Below, one piece after another: positions 23,396-39,485 of a stretch of 39,485 nt of DNA (within the stretch, counting starts at the first letter, position 1; every line of letters starts with the position of its first letter). Origin of the DNA: a virus (taxonomy: Duplodnaviria > Heunggongvirae > Uroviricota > Caudoviricetes); the IMG/VR virus record IMGVR_UViG_2534682294_000013; one strand, 5' to 3'. The position numbers and the translations under genes were made by a program. The notes under the pieces were generated by a model. The model worked only from the letters and a program-made list of their open reading frames with translations. It was not told the origin of the DNA and searched no databases.

Positions 23396-25477
23396 ATGAC
23401 AGGTCGCCTGTTAGATGCTGTCCCACTCAGTTCCCTAACGGGCGTTGGCGCAGCACTTAGTAACAAACTGGCGAAAATCAACCTGCATACCGTGCAGGAT
23501 CTACTCTTACACCTTCCCCTGCGCTACGAAGATCGCACCCATCTCTACCCCATCGGAGAACTACTGCCGGGCGTTTATGCCACGGTGGAAGGCGAAGTGC
23601 TGAACTGCAATATCTCCTTCGGCGGTCGGCGGATGATGACCTGCCAGATCAGCGACGGTTCCGGCATCCTCACCATGCGCTTTTTCAATTTCAGCGCGGC
23701 AATGAAAAATAGCCTGGCGACGGGCCGCCGTGTACTGGCTTATGGCGAAGCAAAGCGCGGTAAATATGGTGCGGAGATGATCCACCCGGAATACCGCGTG
23801 CAGGGCGATCTCAGCACGCCAGAATTACAGGAAACGCTCACGCCGGTTTATCCAACAACGGAAGGCGTAAAGCAGGCCACGCTGCGTAAATTAACCGACC
23901 AGGCGCTGGATCTGCTCGACACCTGCGCCATTGAAGAACTCCTGCCGCCGGAACTGTCACAAGGAATGATGACGCTACCGGAAGCGTTGCGCACTTTGCA
24001 CCGCCCGCCACCGACGCTACAGCTTAGCGATCTGGAAACCGGGCAGCATCCAGCGCAACGTCGTCTGATTCTGGAAGAACTGCTGGCGCACAACCTCAGC
24101 ATGTTAGCCTTACGTGCCGGAGCACAGCGTTTTCATGCCCAGCCGCTGAGCGCCAATGATGCGCTGAAAAATAAACTCCTCGCAGCCTTACCGTTCAAGC
24201 CAACGGGCGCACAGGCACGCGTAGTGGCGGAGATCGAGCGCGATATGGCGCTGGATGTGCCGATGATGCGCCTGGTACAGGGCGATGTAGGTTCCGGTAA
24301 AACGCTGGTCGCCGCCCTCGCCGCGCTGCGTGCGATTGCCCACGGCAAACAGGTGGCATTGATGGCACCAACCGAATTACTCGCCGAACAGCACGCCAAT
24401 AACTTCCGCAACTGGTTTGAACCGCTCGGTATCGAAGTGGGCTGGCTCGCCGGTAAGCAGAAAGGCAAAGCGCGACTGTCTCAGCAGGAAGCCATCGCCA
24501 GCGGTCAGGTGCAGATGATTGTTGGTACGCACGCCATCTTCCAGGAACAGGTGCAGTTTAACGGTCTGGCGCTGGTGATTATCGACGAACAACATCGCTT
24601 TGGCGTGCATCAGCGTCTGGCGTTATGGGAGAAAGGCCAGCAGCAAGGCTTCCATCCGCATCAGTTGATCATGACCGCCACGCCGATCCCCCGCACGCTG
24701 GCAATGACGGCGTATGCCGATCTCGATACCTCGGTGATAGATGAGCTGCCGCCAGGCCGCACGCCAGTGACTACGGTCGCTATTCCTGATACCCGCCGTA
24801 CCGACATCATTGACCGCGTGCGCCACGCCTGCATAACTGAAGGTCGTCAGGCGTACTGGGTTTGTACGTTGATTGAAGAGTCAGAGTTACTGGAAGCGCA
24901 GGCGGCGGAAGCTACCTGGGAAGAGTTGAAACTGGCGCTACCAGAATTGAATGTTGGCCTGGTACACGGGCGGATGAAACCAGCCGAGAAACAGGCGGTG
25001 ATGGCGTCGTTTAAACAAGGTGAGCTACATCTGCTAGTTGCCACTACCGTTATTGAAGTCGGTGTTGATGTGCCTAACGCCAGCCTGATGATTATCGAAA
25101 ACCCTGAGCGTCTGGGTCTGGCGCAGTTACACCAGCTTCGCGGGCGTGTAGGTCGTGGTGCGGTGGCTTCTCACTGCGTGCTGCTCTACAAAACGCCGCT
25201 CTCCAAAACCGCGCAAATTCGGCTGCAAGTGCTGCGCGACAGCAACGACGGTTTTGTGATTGCACAGAAAGACTTAGAGATTCGCGGACCGGGTGAACTG
25301 TTAGGTACGCGTCAGACGGGTAATGCTGAGTTTAAAGTGGCGGATTTACTGCGCGATCAGGCGATGATCCCGGAAGTTCAGCGCCTGGCGCGACATATTC
25401 ACGAACGTTACCCACAACAAGCAAAAGCCCTGATAGAACGCTGGATGCCGGAGACGGAACGTTACTCCAACGCATGA
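23396..25477 (+). CDS. recG: ATP-dependent DNA helicase RecG
   Basis: ORF track 23363-25477 trimmed to MTGRLLDAVPLSSLTGVGAALSNKLAKI... (693 aa); helicase motifs GDVGSGKT and DEQHRFG. Confidence 0.9.
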   Translation: MTGRLLDAVPLSSLTGVGAALSNKLAKINLHTVQDLLLHLPLRYEDRTHLYPIGELLPGVYATVEGEVLNCNISFGGRRMMTCQISDGSGILTMRFFNFSAAMKNSLATGRRVLAYGEAKRGKYGAEMIHPEYRVQGDLSTPELQETLTPVYPTTEGVKQATLRKLTDQALDLLDTCAIEELLPPELSQGMMTLPEALRTLHRPPPTLQLSDLETGQHPAQRRLILEELLAHNLSMLALRAGAQRFHAQPLSANDALKNKLLAALPFKPTGAQARVVAEIERDMALDVPMMRLVQGDVGSGKTLVAALAALRAIAHGKQVALMAPTELLAEQHANNFRNWFEPLGIEVGWLAGKQKGKARLSQQEAIASGQVQMIVGTHAIFQEQVQFNGLALVIIDEQHRFGVHQRLALWEKGQQQGFHPHQLIMTATPIPRTLAMTAYADLDTSVIDELPPGRTPVTTVAIPDTRRTDIIDRVRHACITEGRQAYWVCTLIEESELLEAQAAEATWEELKLALPELNVGLVHGRMKPAEKQAVMASFKQGELHLLVATTVIEVGVDVPNASLMIIENPERLGLAQLHQLRGRVGRGAVASHCVLLYKTPLSKTAQIRLQVLRDSNDGFVIAQKDLEIRGPGELLGTRQTGNAEFKVADLLRDQAMIPEVQRLARHIHERYPQQAKALIERWMPETERYSNA

Positions 25478-26328
25478 CCAGACTCATCACAAGACAAGTC
25501 ACGCAGTAAATCTTCAATCTGGATAGTGAGGATATCCATTGCCTCATACGCATCCTGTGCAATTCGCGCCGCCATTGCGCCTTCCGGTTCACCACGCAGA
25601 ATTTCAGCCGCTGCCTGTACGCCAGCCACAATCATTTCAGGTGTTAACATTTGGCGAAGAAAAGCGCGATTATCAGAGGACCAGCCATCTTTATGGCCTA
25701 ATGGATGCCCCCAGCCTATCCATTCTTGCGACCATAACGGATTGGCTTCTATGGGATAAATTAGATGCGCGGCATACTGAATAGCACACACCGCTTTTCC
25801 TGGCGTATCCAGCGCCCACCAGCGCGACCAGAGAGAACGAATTAACGGCGCGGCCCCACCCAGAGTATTGAACACCGCCAGCCAGCAAAGAACGTTATTG
25901 AAACCACGCTCGTTATCCATACGCTGCAACGCGGTGTCCAGTAAAAATTGCCGTACCTGCTGGCGTTGGGAAGCATTCATCATCTCCTGCCAGAGATAGG
26001 GCCGACACAATGCCTTCATTAAGGATTCTTCGAAGTGATCACCATAACCGCCAGCTAAAACGGTTTCATGCCATTGCGCCAGGCAGAGCGGAAACAGATA
26101 GCGAAACAACTCTATTTGCATCGGTTCGTTATAAACGAGATTGAGTACATAGTAAGCACTCAAATCCCATTCGCTGATCTGCTGCCACTCTTTAGCCGCC
26201 AGCGCCTTGAGTTCGGCATCTGCGTAATCAAATTCCGTTTCCCATACACAGAGCACTGGCGGCTCATCACCAAAAATATGGCGACAGTGTTCACGTAGCG
26301 TTTCCGGTTCCTTCCGACGCTTTTTCAT
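25462..26328 (-). CDS. hypothetical protein, 288 aa, Trp-rich, no recognisable motif
   Basis: Long open frame (MKKRRKEPETLREHCRHIFGDEPPVL...) starting 2 nt after the gltS stop, with no competing long ORF on the other strand; 3' end overlaps the recG 3' end by 16 nt. I do not recognise the product. Confidence 0.65.
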   Translation of the reverse strand: MKKRRKEPETLREHCRHIFGDEPPVLCVWETEFDYADAELKALAAKEWQQISEWDLSAYYVLNLVYNEPMQIELFRYLFPLCLAQWHETVLAGGYGDHFEESLMKALCRPYLWQEMMNASQRQQVRQFLLDTALQRMDNERGFNNVLCWLAVFNTLGGAAPLIRSLWSRWWALDTPGKAVCAIQYAAHLIYPIEANPLWSQEWIGWGHPLGHKDGWSSDNRAFLRQMLTPEMIVAGVQAAAEILRGEPEGAMAARIAQDAYEAMDILTIQIEDLLRDLSCDESGHALE

Positions 26329-31089: not shown

Positions 31090-33408
31090 TTACAACGTAA
31101 TTGTCAGCGCATTCCCTTGAGGCGTCACCACCAGCCCCTGCTCACTTTCAGCCTGCGAACCACCTTGCAGACCATTTACTTTCACAATATTGCGCAAGCA
31201 CAGTGTCCAGTTCTTCGCCTCGCCCGCACCAGTCACAGTAATCGTGTTGCCAGTACGCGCCGCTTTCAGGGTGAAAAGAACGGAACCGTCAGCAGCGGGC
31301 ACTTCACAGATGGCTTCATGCCCGTCTTGTAGATTAAAGAGCTGGAATGCCGTGCCTTCGTGCCACGCGTAATCGGGACGTTGCTCGTTGTTGCCCAGCG
31401 CCAGTAGGGTGTTATCACGCACATAAACGGGCAGACTCAGGAAGCTGTGCTGCTGTTTATGCCAGCGACTACCATCGAGTTCATCGTTGTGCCACAGATG
31501 TGTCCAGCGACCTTCCGGCAAGTAGAACTGCACATCGCCCGCTTCACTGAACACCGGAGCAACCATCACGTTGTCGCCTAACATGTATTGACGGTCAAGG
31601 TAATCACAAGCCGGATCGTCCGGGAACTCCATCATCATGGCCCGCATCATCGGCGTACCCCGCGCGTTCGCACGAGCAGCTTCACGATACAGATACGGCA
31701 TCATGCGGCATTTCAGTTGCGTGAAGAAGCGCACCACATCACAGGACTCATCATCGTAGGCCCACGGCACACGATAAGATTTGCTGCCATGTAAACGGCT
31801 ATGGCTGGAGAGCAAACCAAACGCGCACCAGCGTTTGTAAACGTGCGCCAGAGCGGTATTCTCAAAGCCGCCGATATCGTGGCTCCAGAAACCAAAACCT
31901 GAAAGGCCAATAGACAAACCACCGCGCAGGCTTTCCGCCATTGATTCGTAGTTAGCGTAACAGTCACCACCCCAGTGTACCGGGAATTTCTGCGCACCAA
32001 CGGAGGCCGAGCGAGCAAACAAGACGGCTTCTTCCTCGCCAACGGTGTCCTTGAGCACGTTCCACACCAGTTCGTTGTAGATGTACGCATAATGGTTATG
32101 CATTTTCTGCGGATCGGAACCGTCAAACCACTGAACATCGATTGGAATACGTTCGCCAAAGTCGGTCTTAAAGCAATCAACGCCCATCGCGACCAGACCT
32201 TTCAGTTTGTCGGCGTACCATTTGCAGGCATCCGGATTGGTAAAGTCATAAATCGCCAGACCTGGCTGCCATTTATCCCACTGCCATAACGAACCGTCCG
32301 GGCGTTTGAGTAAATAGCCTTTCTCTTGTAACTCTTTAAAGACAGGGGATTTTTGCCCGATATAGGGGTTAATCCAGACGCAGATTTTTAGCCCTTTCGC
32401 TTTCAGGCGGCGGATCATCCCTTCCGGGTCCGGGAAAGTCAGCGGGTCCCACTCAAAATCGCACCACTGGAAGGCTTTCATCCAGAAACAGTCAAAGTGA
32501 AAAACATGCAGTGGCAGATTGCGTCCCGCCATACCATCGATAAAGCTGTTTACCGTCGCTTCGTCGTAGTTGGTGGTAAATGAAGTGGTTAGCCACAGGC
32601 CGAAGGACCACGCGGGCGGCAGCGCCGGACGACCAGTAAAACGGGTATAACGATCAAGTACCGCTTTCGGCGTCGGGCCGTCGATAACAAAGTATTCGAG
32701 ATATTCACTCTCAACGCTGAACTGCACTTTGGAGACTTTCTCCGATCCCACTTCAAAAGAGACGCATTGAGGATGATTGACCAGTACCCCATAGCCACGG
32801 TTAGTCATATAGAACGGGATATTTTTATACGCCTGTTCAGTACTTGTGCCGCCGTCCCGGTTCCAGGTCTCTACCGTCTGGCCATTGCGCACCAGGGCAG
32901 TAAAGCGCTCTCCCAGACCGTAAACTGTTTCGCCAACGCCAAGATCCAGCCGCTCAAACATATAATTTCGTTGATTATTCGTGTCCTGCACGTAGCCATT
33001 ATTTTTCACCTGACTACCGGTAATACGTTCGCCGTTGCGCAGAAAATCCAGTGACCAGAACTCACCTTTGCTGACACGCGCGCTTAAGTTGCCACTTTTA
33101 AACTCAGCGTAACGTTCTGTGTTTTCGATTGTGACCTTCACGTCCTGCAAAATATTGAGCGGATAATGAGGACCGTTATTCAGCGCCCCCTGAAAATGCT
33201 CAATCCGTACACCGACAATACCTTCCTGTGGGGAGAAAAAGCGCAGCGTAAATAAAGGCGTATCAAGCTGCCAGGTTCGTTCACGCACATCACGGGGGGC
33301 AGCATAGACCACCATTTCATTACCCTGCTGTTCAACCTCGAACACCTGAAGCGGGTGAATCAAATTGAGGCCAGGTTGAATCAACCAGTTTCCGTCGCTA
33401 ATTTTCAT
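31090..33408 (-). CDS. yicI: alpha-xylosidase (GH31)
   Basis: 772-aa [32 protein letters not shown]...; GH31-type catalytic region (WINPYI, KTDFGE). Confidence 0.9.
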
Positions 33409-35092: not shown

Positions 35093-35187
35093 GGAAGATC
35101 GTCGTCTCCGGTGAGGCGGCTGGACTTCAAATCCAGTTGGGGCCGCCAGCGGTCCCGGGCAGGTTCGACTCCTGTGATCTTCCGCCA
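35093..35187 (+). tRNA. selC: tRNA-Sec (selenocysteine, UCA anticodon)
   Basis: GGAAGATCGTCGTCTCCGGTGAGGCGGCTGGACTTCAAATCCAGTTGGGGCCGCCAGCGGTCCCGGGCAGGTTCGACTCCTGTGATCTTCCGCCA: 95 nt with long variable arm, ACTTCAAAT anticodon loop and encoded CCA; matches E. coli selC as remembered. Confidence 0.95.
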
Positions 35188-35349
35188 AACCTCATCCAGC
35201 CAGTTCCGAGATACTCCATAAAATACTTTATATTCAATACGATGAATAATCAGCTTGTCCGTAATAGTCCGAGATCATCTCCCTGAATCCGCGAAAAATA
35301 TGTATAGTAATGTGTATAGATTTTTTATACGTAGTTTTCAGTTATACAC

Positions 35350-36537
35350 ATGGCTCTAACCGATATACAGATCAAACGTGCAAAACCACAAGACAAACCA
35401 TACACATTGAACGATGGACAAGGTCTGTCATTGCTTATCAATCCCGATGGCTCGAAAGGCTGGCGTTTCCGTTTCCGGTTTGCAGGGAAAGCGCGGTTAA
35501 TGTCATTTGGCAGCTACGATTTAGTAAGCCTCGCAGAAGCACGTGAGAAGCGTGATATCGCCCGTAAGCAGGTTGCTAATGGCATTGACCCGGTAGAGGA
35601 ACGCAAAGCTTTAAGACTCGCTCAAAAGCTATCAACAGAAAATTCTTTCGAAGCAATATGTCGAGAATGGTATACCAACAAAGCTGATCGCTGGACTGTA
35701 GCCTATCGAGAAGAAATCATTAGGACATTCGAGCAGGATGTCTTCCCGTTCATTGGTAAACGTCCTATCAGTGAAATCAAACCATTAGAACTGCTTGAAG
35801 TATTGCGACGAATAGAGAAACGAGGAGCACTAGAGAAGACCAGAAAAGTGCGCCAAAGATGCGGTGAGGTCTTTCGTTATGCAATCATAACTGGCCGAGC
35901 TGAATACAACCCAGCACCTGATTTAGCTATCGCTCTGGCCGTTCCTAAGCCAAAACACCACCCATTTTTATCTGTCGAAGAGTTGCCTTATTTTATTCGG
36001 GATTTGGAGGCATACTCCGGCAGCATAATCACCAAAAATGCAACTAAGATAGTTATGCTTACTGGTGTAAGAACGCAGGAGATGCGCTTTGCTACGTGGG
36101 AAGAGGTTGATTTGGATAAGGAGGTTTGGGAGATACCAGCGGAACGTATGAAAATGCGTAGGCCTCACATTGTTCCTTTATCTACTCAGGTAGTTGACCT
36201 TTTTAAACAGCTCAAACCAATTACCGGTCATTACCCTTACATCTTTATTGGCAGGAACAACCGTAGCAAACCGATCTCGAAAGAAAGTGTTTCACAAGTG
36301 ATTGAGTTACTTGGTTACAAAGGCCGTGCTACAGGTCATGGATTTAGACATACAATGTCAACAATATTACATGAACAAGGGTTTGACAGTGCCTGGATTG
36401 AGATGCAATTAGCACATGTTGATAAAAATTCTATTCGTGGAACATACAATCACGCACAATATTTAGAAAATAGACGCGCAATGCTTCAGTGGTATAGTAA
36501 CTTCATATTTAATAAAATTAGTGAAGACACACTTTGA
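35350..36537 (+). CDS. int: P4-family tyrosine integrase
   Basis: 395-aa ORF MALTDIQIKRAKPQDKPYTLNDGQGLSLLINPDGSKGWRFRFRFAGK... (typical P4-integrase N-terminus) with a C-terminal catalytic region (HGFRHT ... Y); 162 nt 3' of selC. Confidence 0.85.
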   Translation: MALTDIQIKRAKPQDKPYTLNDGQGLSLLINPDGSKGWRFRFRFAGKARLMSFGSYDLVSLAEAREKRDIARKQVANGIDPVEERKALRLAQKLSTENSFEAICREWYTNKADRWTVAYREEIIRTFEQDVFPFIGKRPISEIKPLELLEVLRRIEKRGALEKTRKVRQRCGEVFRYAIITGRAEYNPAPDLAIALAVPKPKHHPFLSVEELPYFIRDLEAYSGSIITKNATKIVMLTGVRTQEMRFATWEEVDLDKEVWEIPAERMKMRRPHIVPLSTQVVDLFKQLKPITGHYPYIFIGRNNRSKPISKESVSQVIELLGYKGRATGHGFRHTMSTILHEQGFDSAWIEMQLAHVDKNSIRGTYNHAQYLENRRAMLQWYSNFIFNKISEDTL

Positions 36538-36547
36538 TTTATAAATA

Positions 36548-36575
36548 AAAAGAGCCTCTTCCGAAGCTCTTTTTT
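36548..36575. terminator. bidirectional intrinsic terminator between convergent int and the cargo operon
   Basis: aaaagagc-ctcttccgaa-gctctttt: 8-bp stem flanked by an A-run 5' and a T-run 3', so it reads as hairpin plus U-run on both strands; 10 nt after the int stop and 7 nt after the small-ORF stop. Confidence 0.45.
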
Positions 36576-36581
36576 AATTGT

Positions 36582-36755
36582 TTATTTATTGTTCTTCAAT
36601 CTTTTATCTTCTTGTAAAACAAGATTATTTAACACTTTAATTGACTTGGAGGATAAATCATCTCCTCCTAACATATTTTTTTTCCATTCCGGCCATTCAT
36701 TAATTATTTTTTTAGTTGCAACCACATGTTTAATAAAACCATTTTCGATAGACAT
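36582..36755 (-). CDS. small basic protein, 57 aa, translationally coupled to the upstream deaminase-fusion gene
   Basis: Own translation, not in the ORF track: MSIENGFIKHVVATKKIINEWPEWKKNMLGGDDLSSKSIKVLNNLVLQEDKRLKNNK. ATG at 36753-36755 is 1 nt after the upstream stop; AGGAG (plus strand ctcct, 36762-36766) sits 6 nt upstream of the ATG. 57 stop-free codons in ~30% GC DNA. Confidence 0.5.
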   Translation of the reverse strand: MSIENGFIKHVVATKKIINEWPEWKKNMLGGDDLSSKSIKVLNNLVLQEDKRLKNNK

Positions 36756-36756
36756 G

Positions 36757-38277
36757 TTAAACTCCTATGATCTTTGCGAATAAGTTAACAGAAATCTGCT
36801 CTCTTTCCAAGTAAGAAATAGGCAACAGTGATATTCTTAATGACGAATTAGACTCAGTCCATTTAACAACATTTCCCGACTTATCTTTTCTCTTAATTTT
36901 ATTACCACTTCCATTAACAATGGAAAATAGATTAAAATAGACTCGTGGACCTATTCCAATAAAAGGTTCGAAAAGCACCTTTCCTTGGTTTTTTTCATCA
37001 TTAGTTATTGATTCTGAATGAAATTCATAAGCCTTACTTTTTGGATATGGCTCTATGTAAACCACCCTCTTTATTCCCGAAGCTATAATATGCTTAGCGC
37101 AGTTGTGGCATGGGAAAGTAGTGCAATATATATAAGCATCTTGAGTACTAATATTTGTTCTAGCGCATGCTAAAATAGCTTCCATTTCAGCATGCACCAC
37201 ACGACCATATTCCGTAATATCTTGAATCAGGCTGTTATTGAGGATTCTCTCAAAATTATCACGAGATTTTCTAGGTATTTGATTGAGAATATCATGTATA
37301 ATTTCTCTTTTTTGTTTAGCATTCGAATCAAAACCTCTTACATAGTCCCTTCCTTCCGGATAGTCTTCATAAATTTCGTTCTCTGCATTAAAATATGGCC
37401 AGTATAAACCACCACCAGACTTAGGAACATCATTAGCACCAGTTGACATAATAGCGTAATTTTTTGCTAATACAGCTCCAACTTGTCTTGATAAATCAGC
37501 AGATCTCAAAGCTGAAGAAAAGGCCATATACATTGCATATTCATCAAATGTTGGCGTAATAAAAGGATTACCGAATAGCAAATCAAAAACTCTTTTTATA
37601 TCATTATTAAGTTTATCATCTCGGCCATCTTGGTTTAAAAAGAAATCAGCCAAATGAAATGTATCTCTGGTATGCTGCCCATGCCCAGACTCTTCATCTT
37701 CATCTCTAGCAATCAATAACGCTGCTTTATCTTCTGGAATTCCTTTATTACGAATTAAATTATCTAACCTGCGACTCTCATCAGAAAAAATACCAAACAA
37801 TAAAAATCCCGAGCCATATACTTCTCTTAATTTATACACCTCTTCTGGATGCTTTATTGAATTTATAACATATGCAATTCCTTTTTTATTTATTTGTAAA
37901 CGTGCATGCTTTGCCCTAATCTCATTAATTTTAGCTATTGCTCCAAGAGCCAATATATAATTACATTCACTATCCTCCCTCAGTTTATTTCCCTTAGTCA
38001 TTAAGCCATCAATTCTTTGGTAATTATCTGTATAATCTCCATTACCTAAGAGCTCAGCTATCACATCAGATGAAATCCGAACTTCAGAACATTCAAATTT
38101 ATATAAGGATAATCTATCTCTTATTTTTTTTGTAATTGCTTCTAGGTCTGTGCCAACGGAAGAAACTAACCCTATTACCATTTCTGCTAAAGGTCCTGTG
38201 GATTGCTTATCCTCCCCTGAGTTTTTTAAAAGCTGAGGTGCTTCTTTATTCAATTCTGTTATCTTTGTAATTTTCAT
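36757..38277 (-). CDS. two-domain protein: unassigned N-terminal domain fused to a cytidine/dCMP-deaminase-like zinc-binding domain; candidate anti-phage deaminase
   Basis: 506-aa ORF. C-terminal half has the CDA-fold signature: FDEYAMYMAFSSALRSADLSRQVGAVLAKNYAIMSTGAND (aa 244-283), HAEMEAI (H362, E364) and PCHNC (C390, C393). N-terminal ~230 aa has a Gly-rich segment GLVSSVGTD but no canonical Walker A. AT-rich; lies between int and cos/psu. Confidence 0.85.
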   Translation of the reverse strand: MKITKITELNKEAPQLLKNSGEDKQSTGPLAEMVIGLVSSVGTDLEAITKKIRDRLSLYKFECSEVRISSDVIAELLGNGDYTDNYQRIDGLMTKGNKLREDSECNYILALGAIAKINEIRAKHARLQINKKGIAYVINSIKHPEEVYKLREVYGSGFLLFGIFSDESRRLDNLIRNKGIPEDKAALLIARDEDEESGHGQHTRDTFHLADFFLNQDGRDDKLNNDIKRVFDLLFGNPFITPTFDEYAMYMAFSSALRSADLSRQVGAVLAKNYAIMSTGANDVPKSGGGLYWPYFNAENEIYEDYPEGRDYVRGFDSNAKQKREIIHDILNQIPRKSRDNFERILNNSLIQDITEYGRVVHAEMEAILACARTNISTQDAYIYCTTFPCHNCAKHIIASGIKRVVYIEPYPKSKAYEFHSESITNDEKNQGKVLFEPFIGIGPRVYFNLFSIVNGSGNKIKRKDKSGNVVKWTESNSSLRISLLPISYLEREQISVNLFAKIIGV

Positions 38278-38475
38278 ATGAAGTCATTCATCCAGTGAAG
38301 ATACAAAACATTTTTATAAATAATTCTTAGCATGTTTTCTATGTTTTCATTAAATTTTTTGAATTACCTCATGTTTTACATTTAAGCAACACAAGGTAAA
38401 CAACTGTTATATAAGAAAATTGAAAGCATAATGAATGATGTAGTTGGCTGTCACGTCTTCCCACTTCGTAGGGCG

Positions 38476-38490
38476 GATTCAGGCTGAATC
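38476..38490. repeat. 15-bp perfect palindrome in the cargo-operon upstream region
   Basis: gattcag-g-ctgaatc: 7-bp inverted arms around one central nucleotide, ~200 nt upstream of the deaminase-fusion start codon. Confidence 0.4.
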
Positions 38491-38734
38491 ATAGATAGTT
38501 TTAGACCTCTTATAGGACCGAATGTATAAGATGAAGGTATTAGAGGAGCTGAGCGCCTTCAAAACCGCCACTCAGTATCTAAACCGGGCAATACTTTCTC
38601 GCCCCTAACTTAGCCACTCATGGGCTCATCACGCCATCAAACATTACTGCACGATCACTAATACTCGTTCGAAACGGCACAGTACTACGGTACACCAAGT
38701 CCCGCAAAAATAAATACATTACCGCTGGCGCGCA

Positions 38735-38753
38735 GTGCTTTCCCCGCCTCGCC
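38735..38753. other. P2/P4-type cos site (19-nt cohesive-end sequence)
   Basis: gtgctttccccgcctcgcc is the exact reverse complement of GGCGAGGCGGGGAAAGCAC, the P2/P4 cohesive end as I remember it; located just 3' of psu as in P4. Confidence 0.7.
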
Positions 38754-38856
38754 CGCCCGCTTTGCGGGGCGGTTTTAATGCAGTTTCACTGACACGCTCA
38801 GGCCGCGCCGGGAATGGCGCGGTCTGCAGAAAATGAGGCAGGAAAACGCATGCAAA

Positions 38857-38887
38857 GCCATGCACCTTATCGATGCATGGCTTTTTT
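38857..38887 (+). terminator. intrinsic terminator (strongest in + orientation) 30 nt beyond the psu stop
   Basis: gccatgca-ccttatcga-tgcatggc-tttttt: 8-bp stem plus T6 on the plus strand, preceded by AAA so it may act in both directions. Confidence 0.5.
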
Positions 38888-38917
38888 CAGTAAAAACGGG
38901 CGGATTTTCGGGGAGTT

Positions 38918-39485
38918 TTACACAGACTGATGTGATGCCAGTTGCGCACTTTTACGCGAAAAAATCATGTTCTGCGCAGGGGTGAATTTTTCACGGCTGT
39001 CATCCACCGAAGCCGCGTCAGGCCTGAATCCGATGGTCGTTAAAATGTCGCTATCCTGTGCGGAATAATTAATTTTTTCCCCCTTCGCAAGCCAGGACAG
39101 GAGGGCTTCACGCAGGGCATCTGTGGCACGCTGTATGGCACAGTTTCGGGCAATGGCCGTCAGCTCACTGTAACCCATCAGCTCCGGTGCCAGTGCGGCC
39201 GCCAGTACTGTGCCGTGCTGCTGCATAAAATCATTCAGCCGGTCGCGGATGCTGATGTGCTGAACGGCTTCATGCGAACGAATATAACGACCGGCGGCCT
39301 GATTCACCTGCCATTTTCTGACTTCGATAATATTGCGTAATTCGTCCAGGCGGCTGACGTTTCTGCCTTCTCCTGACAGAAGCCGCAGATATTCCTGTTC
39401 GGCCGCTGCCAGCTCATTTTTGCGTTGCAGCCATGCTGCTTTGTTATTCTGACAGGTGTCAAAGGCCTGCTGTAAGGCTGTGCTT
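38918..39485 (-). CDS. psu: P4 Psu-like polarity-suppression / capsid decoration protein (5' end ~5 nt beyond window)
   Basis: The frame of track ORF 38918-39307 stays open to the window edge. Own translation from the edge: STALQQAFDTCQNNKAAWLQRKNELAAAEQEYLRLLSGEGRNVSRLDELRNIIEVRKWQVNQAAGRYIRSHEAV...; resembles the P4 Psu N-terminus as remembered, and the implied length (~190 aa) fits. Confidence 0.65.
   Translation of the reverse strand, partial: STALQQAFDTCQNNKAAWLQRKNELAAAEQEYLRLLSGEGRNVSRLDELRNIIEVRKWQVNQAAGRYIRSHEAVQHISIRDRLNDFMQQHGTVLAAALAPELMGYSELTAIARNCAIQRATDALREALLSWLAKGEKINYSAQDSDILTTIGFRPDAASVDDSREKFTPAQNMIFSRKSAQLASHQSV

Follow-up and report, generated by a model that had tools for sequence, protein, structure and literature searches.

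A very probable P4-type satellite with a dCTP deaminase-family cassette beside cos at selC of Escherichia coli O157:H7

The satellite phage P4 has leuX as its own integration target. Among P4-like satellites, those classified as Type A contain all seven core components (Moura de Sousa and Rocha, PMC8628076), and a hotspot located between psu and int and adjoining cos has been described in these elements (Rousset et al., 2022, PMC9122126). The retronphage phiR73 resides in the selenocystyl-tRNA gene as a P4-like cryptic prophage (Sun, Inouye and Inouye, 1991, cited in PMC6174562). With regard to dCTP deaminases, positive phage-resistance results have been obtained for alleles other than the present one (Tal et al., bioRxiv 10.1101/2021.04.26.441389), members of the family protect against only some phages, and the avcID locus, a type III toxin-antitoxin system, produces the co-oriented antitoxin sRNA AvcI, a transcript of ~280 nt (PMC10511110). 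A two-gene cassette from E. coli O157:H7 FRIK944, synthesised with its native promoter and cloned as pFR98, conferred no detectable defence on the phage panel employed (PMC9122126).

The window analysed here is a stretch of 39,485 nucleotides (IMG/VR virus record IMGVR_UViG_2534682294_000013) which corresponds, with 0 mismatches, to positions 4812207–4851691 of the FRIK944 chromosome. Positions 35093–39485 very probably represent the selC-proximal third of an integrated P4-type satellite phage of 11,069 bp in E. coli O157:H7 (Table 1). The locus is already known, as it was catalogued and cloned in 2022 by Rousset et al. (PMC9122126); the value of its description lies in a correct annotation, i.e., a complete satellite instead of loose "phage-like genes", which provides a textbook case as well as an example of a P4 satellite with a nucleotide-depletion defence gene in the cos-adjacent slot.

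Table 1. Features of the selC-proximal part of the satellite (positions are those of the window).
Feature	Positions	Strand	Basis
selC (tRNA-Sec, anticodon TCA), intact	35093..35187	+	ARAGORN; Rfam RF01852 tRNA-Sec, 83.8 bits
Satellite left end: putative attL arm region, integrase promoter and leader	35188..35349	+	Conserved (94%) with sister satellite
P4-family tyrosine integrase, 395 aa, selC-specific type	35350..36537	+	Pfam Arm-DNA-bind_3, Phage_int_M, Phage_integrase
Variable (hotspot) cassette, 2,228 bp	36501..38728		Homology with AIPR-carrying sister satellite ends at 36500 and resumes at 38729
Putative intrinsic terminator hairpin, active in both directions, separating int from the convergent cargo operon, AAAAAGAGCCTCTTCCGAAGCTCTTTTTT	36547..36575		RNA folds
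57-aa ORF, hypothetical protein WP_000021256.1	36582..36755	-	ORF listing; W-P-x-W-K motif
Anti-phage dCTP deaminase (by family), 506 aa	36757..38277	-	NCBIfam NF041025, PADLOC dCTPase, Pfam dCMP_cyt_deam_1
Non-coding stretch upstream of cargo operon, 451 nt	38278..38728	-	GC, alignments
Predicted cos packaging site (19-nt cohesive end at 38735-38753)	38729..38785	-	Flanks conserved with P4 and P2
psu (polarity suppression, capsid decoration protein), 188 of 190 codons plus stop inside the window	38918..39485	-	Pfam Psu, E = 4.5e-63

The satellite extends from attL, within the intact tRNA-Sec gene, to attR. The attL core comprises the last 21 nt of selC (35167–35187, GACTCCTGTGATCTTCCGCCA) and is repeated exactly 11,069 bp downstream (positions 31144–31164 of the FRIK944 locus extract). 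Its order is selC-int-cargo-cos-psu-delta-sid-alpA-...-epsilon-...-alpha-crr-attR, colinear with P4, with int and alpha as the terminal genes and only att between them. Beyond the end of the window, the PGAP annotation of FRIK944 lists delta, sid, alpA-like, Icd-like, epsilon, orf151, DUF5375 and alpha genes, none of them flagged as a pseudogene; their products include the Pfam families Ogr_Delta, Phage_AlpA and Derepression and primase domains, and these genes have the same lengths as their P4 counterparts. The RNAs isrK and C4 (CI RNA) score above the Rfam gathering threshold, and the crr repeats and the attR core are also present in this region. All seven P4 core components occur in the element, which corresponds to a Type A P4-like satellite as defined in PMC8628076. 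The initial annotation, made from the window, had proposed a P4-like satellite at selC with tRNA-Sec, a P4-type integrase (+), an AT-rich cargo operon (-), the cos 19-mer and psu (-), all of which lie at the positions it gave, and had placed delta, sid and alpha homologues beyond the window; the P4 core genes and the attL/attR pair of the identical FRIK944 sequence bear out this proposal.

The comparison with strains devoid of the element, also suggested at that stage, located an exact satellite-free selC junction in 370 of 5,426 complete E. coli genomes, and divergence from this junction begins right at the 3' end of the tRNA. In those 370 genomes the LEE adjoins selC directly; in FRIK944 the satellite sits between selC and the LEE. 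The adjoining selC/LEE island, for which the names 933L and SpLE4 are in use, carries a P4-family integrase, and the integrases of the two elements are 68% identical. The satellite entered a selC gene already occupied by the LEE island, and this insertion produced a tandem array, an arrangement absent from the first reading of the window. The locus shows the stacking of two elements with related integrases at a single tRNA gene, beside the main virulence island of O157:H7. The satellite integrase had no close relative in the phage collection searched (best match 49%). The hairpin that separates int from the convergent cargo operon was missed by a consensus terminator scan; the RNA of the minus strand is predicted to fold with -15.9 kcal/mol (z = -5.65) and that of the plus strand with -11 kcal/mol (z = -4.5).

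The packaging site is recognised by the 19-mer GGCGAGGCGGGGAAAGCAC, which occurs exactly at 38735–38753 (minus strand) as the sole match in the window even when 2 mismatches are allowed; none of 100 shuffled controls contained it. The 19-mer forms part of a 57-nt block (38729–38785) conserved in a four-way alignment of the window, P4, P2 and a sister satellite, and P2-like phages match positions 38706–38795 at 86–88%. This combination of an exact 19-mer and a conserved core predicts a cos of the P2/P4 type on which a P2-type terminase could act. As for psu, the reading frame is open from 39484 to the stop codon at 38918–38920, with only the first two codons past the end of the window; the gene shares 98.4% nucleotide identity with that of P4, and 187 of the 190 residues of the full FRIK944 Psu protein are identical to P4 Psu. 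A frameshift in psu was considered and discarded, as the 129-aa ORF that suggested it is an artefact of the ORF listing at the window edge and translation shows one open frame. The proposals that the 19-mer is not a chance match and that the neighboring gene encodes Psu were both upheld, as was the assignment of the cargo to the int-to-cos hotspot, where same-backbone sister satellites carry unrelated cargo (AIPR, retron St85, GAF or GapS4a).

Cargo is exchanged in the int-to-cos interval: the cassette next to cos, between psu/cos and int, differs in content on a conserved backbone. In the present element it starts within int, of which it takes in the final 37 nt, and continues with the terminator, two cargo genes and the 451-nt region upstream of them, and its edge at 38729 is 6 nt from the cos 19-mer. 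It was found in only 12 of the 5,426 complete E. coli genomes, in every case at the selC site, with 99.8–100% conservation among the carriers. The GC content is 33.8% in the 506-aa gene and 26.4% in the 57-aa gene (49.8% in the rest of the window). The upstream stretch is composed of a proximal portion of ~170 nt (24.5% GC), conserved with the closest homologues and read as promoter and 5' UTR, and a distal portion of ~290 nt (38441–38728; 47% GC) that is not common to the 89–90% identical deaminase homologues of Scandinavium and Raoultella. For the upstream stretch there were no Rfam matches, a fold z of 0.01 and no convincing ORF, and a sensitive blastn search with 38430–38728 in all complete E. 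coli genomes gave matches only in the 12 carriers. The antitoxin RNA AvcI lies upstream of its deaminase gene. An equivalent RNA in 38441–38728 was not supported, as this sequence folds like its shuffled versions, is empty in Rfam and is not conserved upstream of the Scandinavium and Raoultella homologues; such an RNA may lie within the proximal AT-rich ~170 nt.

The larger cargo gene encodes a protein with a kinase-like N-terminal region and a zinc deaminase domain in its C-terminal part (Pfam dCMP_cyt_deam_1, E = 5.6e-20). It scores 470.7 bits against the equivalog model NF041025 (cut-off 400) and matches the PADLOC dCTPase profile with E = 1.2e-168, and its zinc-binding motifs are intact (HAE at residue 362 and PCHNC, i.e., P-C-x-x-C, at residue 389). 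Its matches among solved structures are confined to dCMP deaminase domains, with no full-length relative. The gene pair next to cos is also present in related satellites of Raoultella, Yersinia and a contig labelled Vagococcus.

The 57-aa ORF is translationally coupled to the deaminase gene, with its ATG 1 nt past the deaminase stop codon and GGAG upstream. A search with Pfam, PADLOC and NCBIfam models gave no matches to the small protein, and a word-indexed protein search retrieved close relatives only, all named "hypothetical". By means of ORF listing combined with a degenerate DNA pattern, 60 of the 80 loci with deaminase homologues, from different phyla, were seen to have a homologue at the same position, and the W-P-x-W-K motif (W21-P22-x-W24-K25 in the 57-aa protein) is invariant in the family. 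A literature search for reports of a small protein that partners dCTP deaminases returned nothing relevant, which is not proof of absence, and the conservation of this ORF beside deaminases may be a new observation. We tentatively propose, as a possibility somewhat short of an even chance, that these W-P-x-W-K proteins of ~50–75 aa constitute an unrecognised, phylum-spanning family whose members are partners dedicated to anti-phage dCTP deaminases, for instance sensor subunits or labile inhibitors. In that case, the dCTP deaminase defence that textbooks present as "single-gene" would really be a two-gene system; regulation of the deaminase by the small protein could explain why these enzymes are silent until infection and also why some cloned alleles, including that of pFR98, show no activity.

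From established P4 biology, the life cycle of the element can be envisaged as follows. Int would recombine attP with the 3' end of selC, regenerating the tRNA gene, and CI RNA would keep the prophage silent. In the presence of a P2-type helper, epsilon would derepress the satellite and delta would activate its late genes; small capsids would then be built with Sid and Psu, and the helper terminase would cut cos and package the 11-kb genome. When a lytic phage stops host transcription, the deaminase and the 57-aa protein coupled to it may jointly turn dCTP into dUTP, and the loss of dCTP would starve phage DNA synthesis and protect the host along with its resident satellite.

Many unrelated islands reside at selC, and an integrase of the LEE type is located at a distance of only 11 kb, so the element might be regarded as a generic genomic island or as a satellite of another kind (PICI, cf-PICI) with a coincidental cos 19-mer. 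This reading is refuted, its probability being negligible, by the exact 19-mer (0 of 100 shuffles) inside a block common to P4 and P2 and by the full P4 gene set that follows in P4 order. An improbable, though less remote, explanation is that of a fixed P4 remnant, a cryptic island with P4-like sequence that can no longer be mobilised. The position of the element, wedged between selC and the LEE, agrees with it, as does the 99.8–100% identity among seven O157:H7 chromosomes, which fits vertical inheritance. However, the core genes are all full length and 98–99% identical to those of functional P4, cos, attL, attR, crr and CI RNA are intact, and the same element occurs with 98.2–98.6% identity in five unrelated non-O157 genomes, which implies recent horizontal spread.

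The activity of the cargo is a separate matter. Since pFR98 gave no detectable defence, the anti-phage role of the FRIK944 allele is assigned by homology only, and this negative result speaks for an allele that does not act as an anti-phage system in E. coli, either because it is inactive or very narrow in range or because it serves another role such as a satellite-stabilising addiction module. We consider this rather unlikely, given that the deaminase exceeds the NF041025 equivalog cut-off with intact HAE and PCxxC motifs, that the cassette is 99.8–100% conserved in 12 genomes, that the gene pair has been kept next to cos in the Raoultella, Yersinia and Vagococcus-labelled satellites and that narrow phage ranges are known for family members (PMC10511110). 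The preferred reading is that of a defence cargo, by family, carried in the hotspot of a P4-type satellite.

In relation to the known defence systems, the deaminase belongs by profile to the same two-domain family as the dCTP deaminase of Tal et al. (bioRxiv 10.1101/2021.04.26.441389) and AvcD of AvcID (PMC10511110), and it would share with them the proposed action, i.e., dCTP depletion after phage-induced transcription shut-off; the AW1.7 enzyme has 576 aa vs 506 aa in the present case. With respect to AvcID, a 451-nt non-coding leader precedes the gene, in which an AvcI-like RNA was not demonstrated by Rfam, fold or alignment. The "Cytidine deaminase" entry pFR98 (PMC9122126) is the same locus, as WP_000704989, WP_000021256, NZ_CP016625 and the cloned sequence from cos all match the window; that study discusses neither the selC/LEE tandem nor how widely the small ORF is conserved.

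Like the element described here, phiR73 is a P4-type satellite at selC with defence-type cargo; its cargo is a retron, whereas the deaminase and 57-aa ORF do not qualify as one. Retron-bearing sister elements are present at the selC site in other strains. The LEE island uses the same attB and an integrase 68% identical to that of the satellite, but it is not a satellite, being instead a large island that contains IS elements and genes for type III secretion. P4 itself (X51522 / NC_001609; 11,624 bp vs 11,069 bp for the satellite) shares the segment cos-psu-delta-sid-ori-CI RNA-alpA (vis)-epsilon-orf151-orf106-alpha-crr as one colinear piece with 97.5% identity over 7,353 bp; the Sid, Psu and alpha proteins are 98, 98, and 99% identical, respectively, and the 19-nt cohesive end is the same. 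In contrast, its integrase differs (38% identity, E = 4e-94) and its cargo is gop-beta-cII instead of the deaminase and the 57-aa gene. Judged by sequence, the backbone from cos to crr is essentially P4 itself, whereas the int/att module and the cargo are not those of P4.

The element at selC is supported as a complete P4-type satellite whose dCTP-deaminase cassette occupies the hotspot known to lie beside cos, with LEE in tandem at the same tRNA gene. All five landmarks named by the initial annotation (tRNA-Sec, integrase, minus-strand cargo, cohesive-end 19-mer and psu) were found in the window, and the GC content of the 506-aa and 57-aa cargo genes is 33.8 and 26.4%, respectively, vs. 49.8% across the chromosomal portion of the window.

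selC and satellite features located in the window
Feature	Position	Strand	Basis
tRNA-Sec	35093-35187	+	Rfam
Tyrosine integrase (int), 395 aa	35350-36537	+	Arm-DNA-bind_3 / Phage_int_M / Phage_integrase
Bidirectional terminator hairpin	36547-36575	both	fold z = -4.5 and -5.65
Cargo gene, 57 aa	36582-36755	-	ORF
Cargo gene, 506 aa	36757-38277	-	ORF
P2/P4 cohesive-end 19-mer, exact	38735-38753	-	pattern search
psu	stop at 38918, open to window edge, only two codons missing	-	Pfam Psu E = 4.5e-63

Seven E. coli O157:H7 chromosomes are 100% identical to window positions 35093-39485, and the whole window corresponds to 4812207-4851691 of strain FRIK944 with 0 mismatches. The remainder of the P4 gene set, expected past the window edge, is present in this strain: after psu come delta and sid (166 and 244 aa), genes for an AlpA-type HTH protein of 88 aa and for an Icd-like protein, and further on epsilon (95 aa), orf151, DUF5375/orf106 and alpha (777 aa). 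Gene lengths beyond psu equal those annotated in P4, with 0 pseudogene flags, and protein identity to P4 reaches 98% for Sid, 99% for alpha and 98% for Psu, which confirms the relationship proposed for the psu-like ORF. Pfam recognizes Ogr_Delta, Phage_AlpA, Derepression and primase-helicase domains among the satellite proteins, and the Rfam matches to isrK and to the CI immunity RNA (C4 family) exceed the gathering score. Downstream of alpha, two repeats spaced by ~180 nt and rich in GGTGAACA iterons correspond to crr. The predicted attR repeat of the selC 3' end also occurs downstream of alpha and crr, as an exact 21-nt copy (GACTCCTGTGATCTTCCGCCA; 31144-31164 of the extended FRIK944 locus, L001), and the satellite measures 11,069 bp. 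With backbone, cos, attR and gene set all present, the assignment as a P4-type satellite at selC holds.

Directly past attR, another integrase of the P4 family (68% identity to that of the satellite) is followed by IS elements and then by espF and other LEE type III secretion genes; satellite and LEE thus form a tandem array at selC (L001 31135-32541 and onward). A synthetic satellite-free junction, composed of 300 nt up to the selC 3' end and 300 nt from past attR, is contiguous in 370 of 5,426 genomes (in some at 100% identity), that is, selC is joined straight to the LEE-side integrase. Therefore, site-specific recombination placed the satellite precisely in a selC gene already occupied by LEE. 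The segment comprising the attL arm and int is matched with at least 80% coverage in 471 genomes, 164 of them with at least 90% identity. Megablast with the selC-to-psu query matched three places in the FRIK944 record (NZ_CP016625), and a second P4 hotspot with an HTH + RE_EcoO109I + methylase cassette is listed for this strain (Rousset et al., 2022, PMC9122126, Table S1), so FRIK944 has more than one P4-like element.

Elsewhere in the window, a 288-aa hypothetical gene without a match in Pfam lies between gltS and recG, whose 3' end it overlaps by 16 nt (25462-26328, minus strand; L001 10370-11236). K-12 is not known to have a gene at this position.

The placement of the cargo in an int-to-cos hotspot is borne out by comparison with selC satellites of other E. 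coli strains, which share the backbone (96.6-97.1% identity) and differ in cargo (e.g., AIPR protein, retron St85 system, RT+SLATT, GAF-domain gene or GapS4a), and it agrees with the defense hotspot described from psu to int, directly beside cos (Rousset et al., 2022, PMC9122126). Relative to the AIPR-bearing satellite, homology stops at position 36500, 37 nt short of the int stop, and returns at 38729, which leaves 6 nt to the cohesive end; since the first limit falls inside int, the integrase C-terminus belongs to the swapped block. The swapped part is the last 37 nt of int (36501-36537), about 12 codons. Sister-satellite integrases are 390-395 aa long with unlike C-terminal tails, which places a recombination breakpoint inside the gene. 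The cassette (2,228 bp) consists of the terminator hairpin, the two cargo genes and a 451-nt upstream non-coding region, and occurs in 12 of 5,426 complete E. coli genomes, every time at the selC satellite slot. The distal ~290 nt of the leader (38441-38728; 47% GC), between cos and the AT-rich cargo promoter region, are 100% conserved in these 12 carriers. This stretch contains no ORF, Rfam match or unusual fold, has no relative beyond the carriers among complete E. coli genomes and is missing upstream of the closest deaminase homologs.

The 506-aa protein scores 470.7 bits against NCBIfam NF041025 ('anti-phage dCTP deaminase'; curated cut-off 400), matches PADLOC dCTPase (E = 1.2e-168) and keeps both zinc motifs, HAE and PCxxC. 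Given its homology to AvcD (PMC10511110) and to the enzymes described by Tal et al. (bioRxiv 10.1101/2021.04.26.441389), it would likely deaminate dCTP when a phage shuts off host transcription. Homologs 74-90% identical occur in the same arrangement in four loci, L008 (Scandinavium), L009 (Raoultella), L010 and L011 (Yersinia proxima), where the deaminase and a small ORF are accompanied by a convergent integrase of the selC type, incomplete on the truncated contig of L008; cos also lies upstream of the gene pair in L009-L011. L010 (NZ_JBQPOM010000030.1), labeled Vagococcus sp. WN89Y, combines an enterobacterial-type P4 cos, a 75%-identical deaminase, a small ORF and an integrase of the selC type; for a contig assigned to a Gram-positive genus, this combination is probably due to contamination or mis-binning.

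The locus was listed and cloned previously, hence the finding is already known. In their supplement, Rousset et al. (2022; PMC9122126) tabulate NZ_CP016625 with WP_000704989 (+ WP_000021256) as a P4 hotspot system and enter plasmid pFR98 as 'Cytidine deaminase, P4, 2 genes, E. coli O157:H7 FRIK944'. The pFR98 insert starts at the cos site of the window and encodes both cargo proteins. The synthesized system displayed no activity on the phage panel of that study (Methods), and this negative result is the sole experimental datum on the FRIK944 allele.

The small ORF may be an exception. It starts 1 nt past the deaminase stop, preceded by GGAG, and ORFs of 49-74 aa directly follow the deaminase in every homolog inspected, among Enterobacterales, Pseudomonas, Vibrio, Acinetobacter, Firmicutes, Myxococcota, Planctomycetota and Acidobacteriota. 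Alignment of 17 small ORFs displays four invariant positions (W21, P22, W24, and K25). The degenerate W-P-x-W-K pattern occurs once, on the coding strand and within ~200 nt past the deaminase match, in 60 of 80 homolog loci (62 for the shorter W-P-x-W), against a chance expectation that we estimate at ~3e-5 per locus. The 57-aa protein, named hypothetical in source annotations, has no model in Pfam, PADLOC or NCBIfam; the literature searched contained no description of a small ORF beside the dCTP deaminase, and Tal et al. (bioRxiv 10.1101/2021.04.26.441389) handled the system as a single gene. The ORF is a member of a mini-protein family widely conserved across many phyla, with an invariant W-P-x-W-K motif. 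As a guess, its product might be a partner that regulates the deaminase, or else a labile inhibitor.

The cos-like 19-mer is no chance match to the P2/P4 cohesive end: it is unique at up to two mismatches, 0 of 100 shuffles gave a match, and it lies within a 57-nt block (38729-38785) that shows little or no variation among the satellite, P4, P2 and one sister satellite. In this four-way comparison likeness on the cargo side ends 6-7 nt past the cohesive end. From cos to crr, 7,353 bp of P4 align as one colinear megablast piece 97.5% identical to the satellite, whereas P4 Int is only 38% identical to the satellite integrase; the satellite is thus a P4 backbone with another integration module and other cargo.
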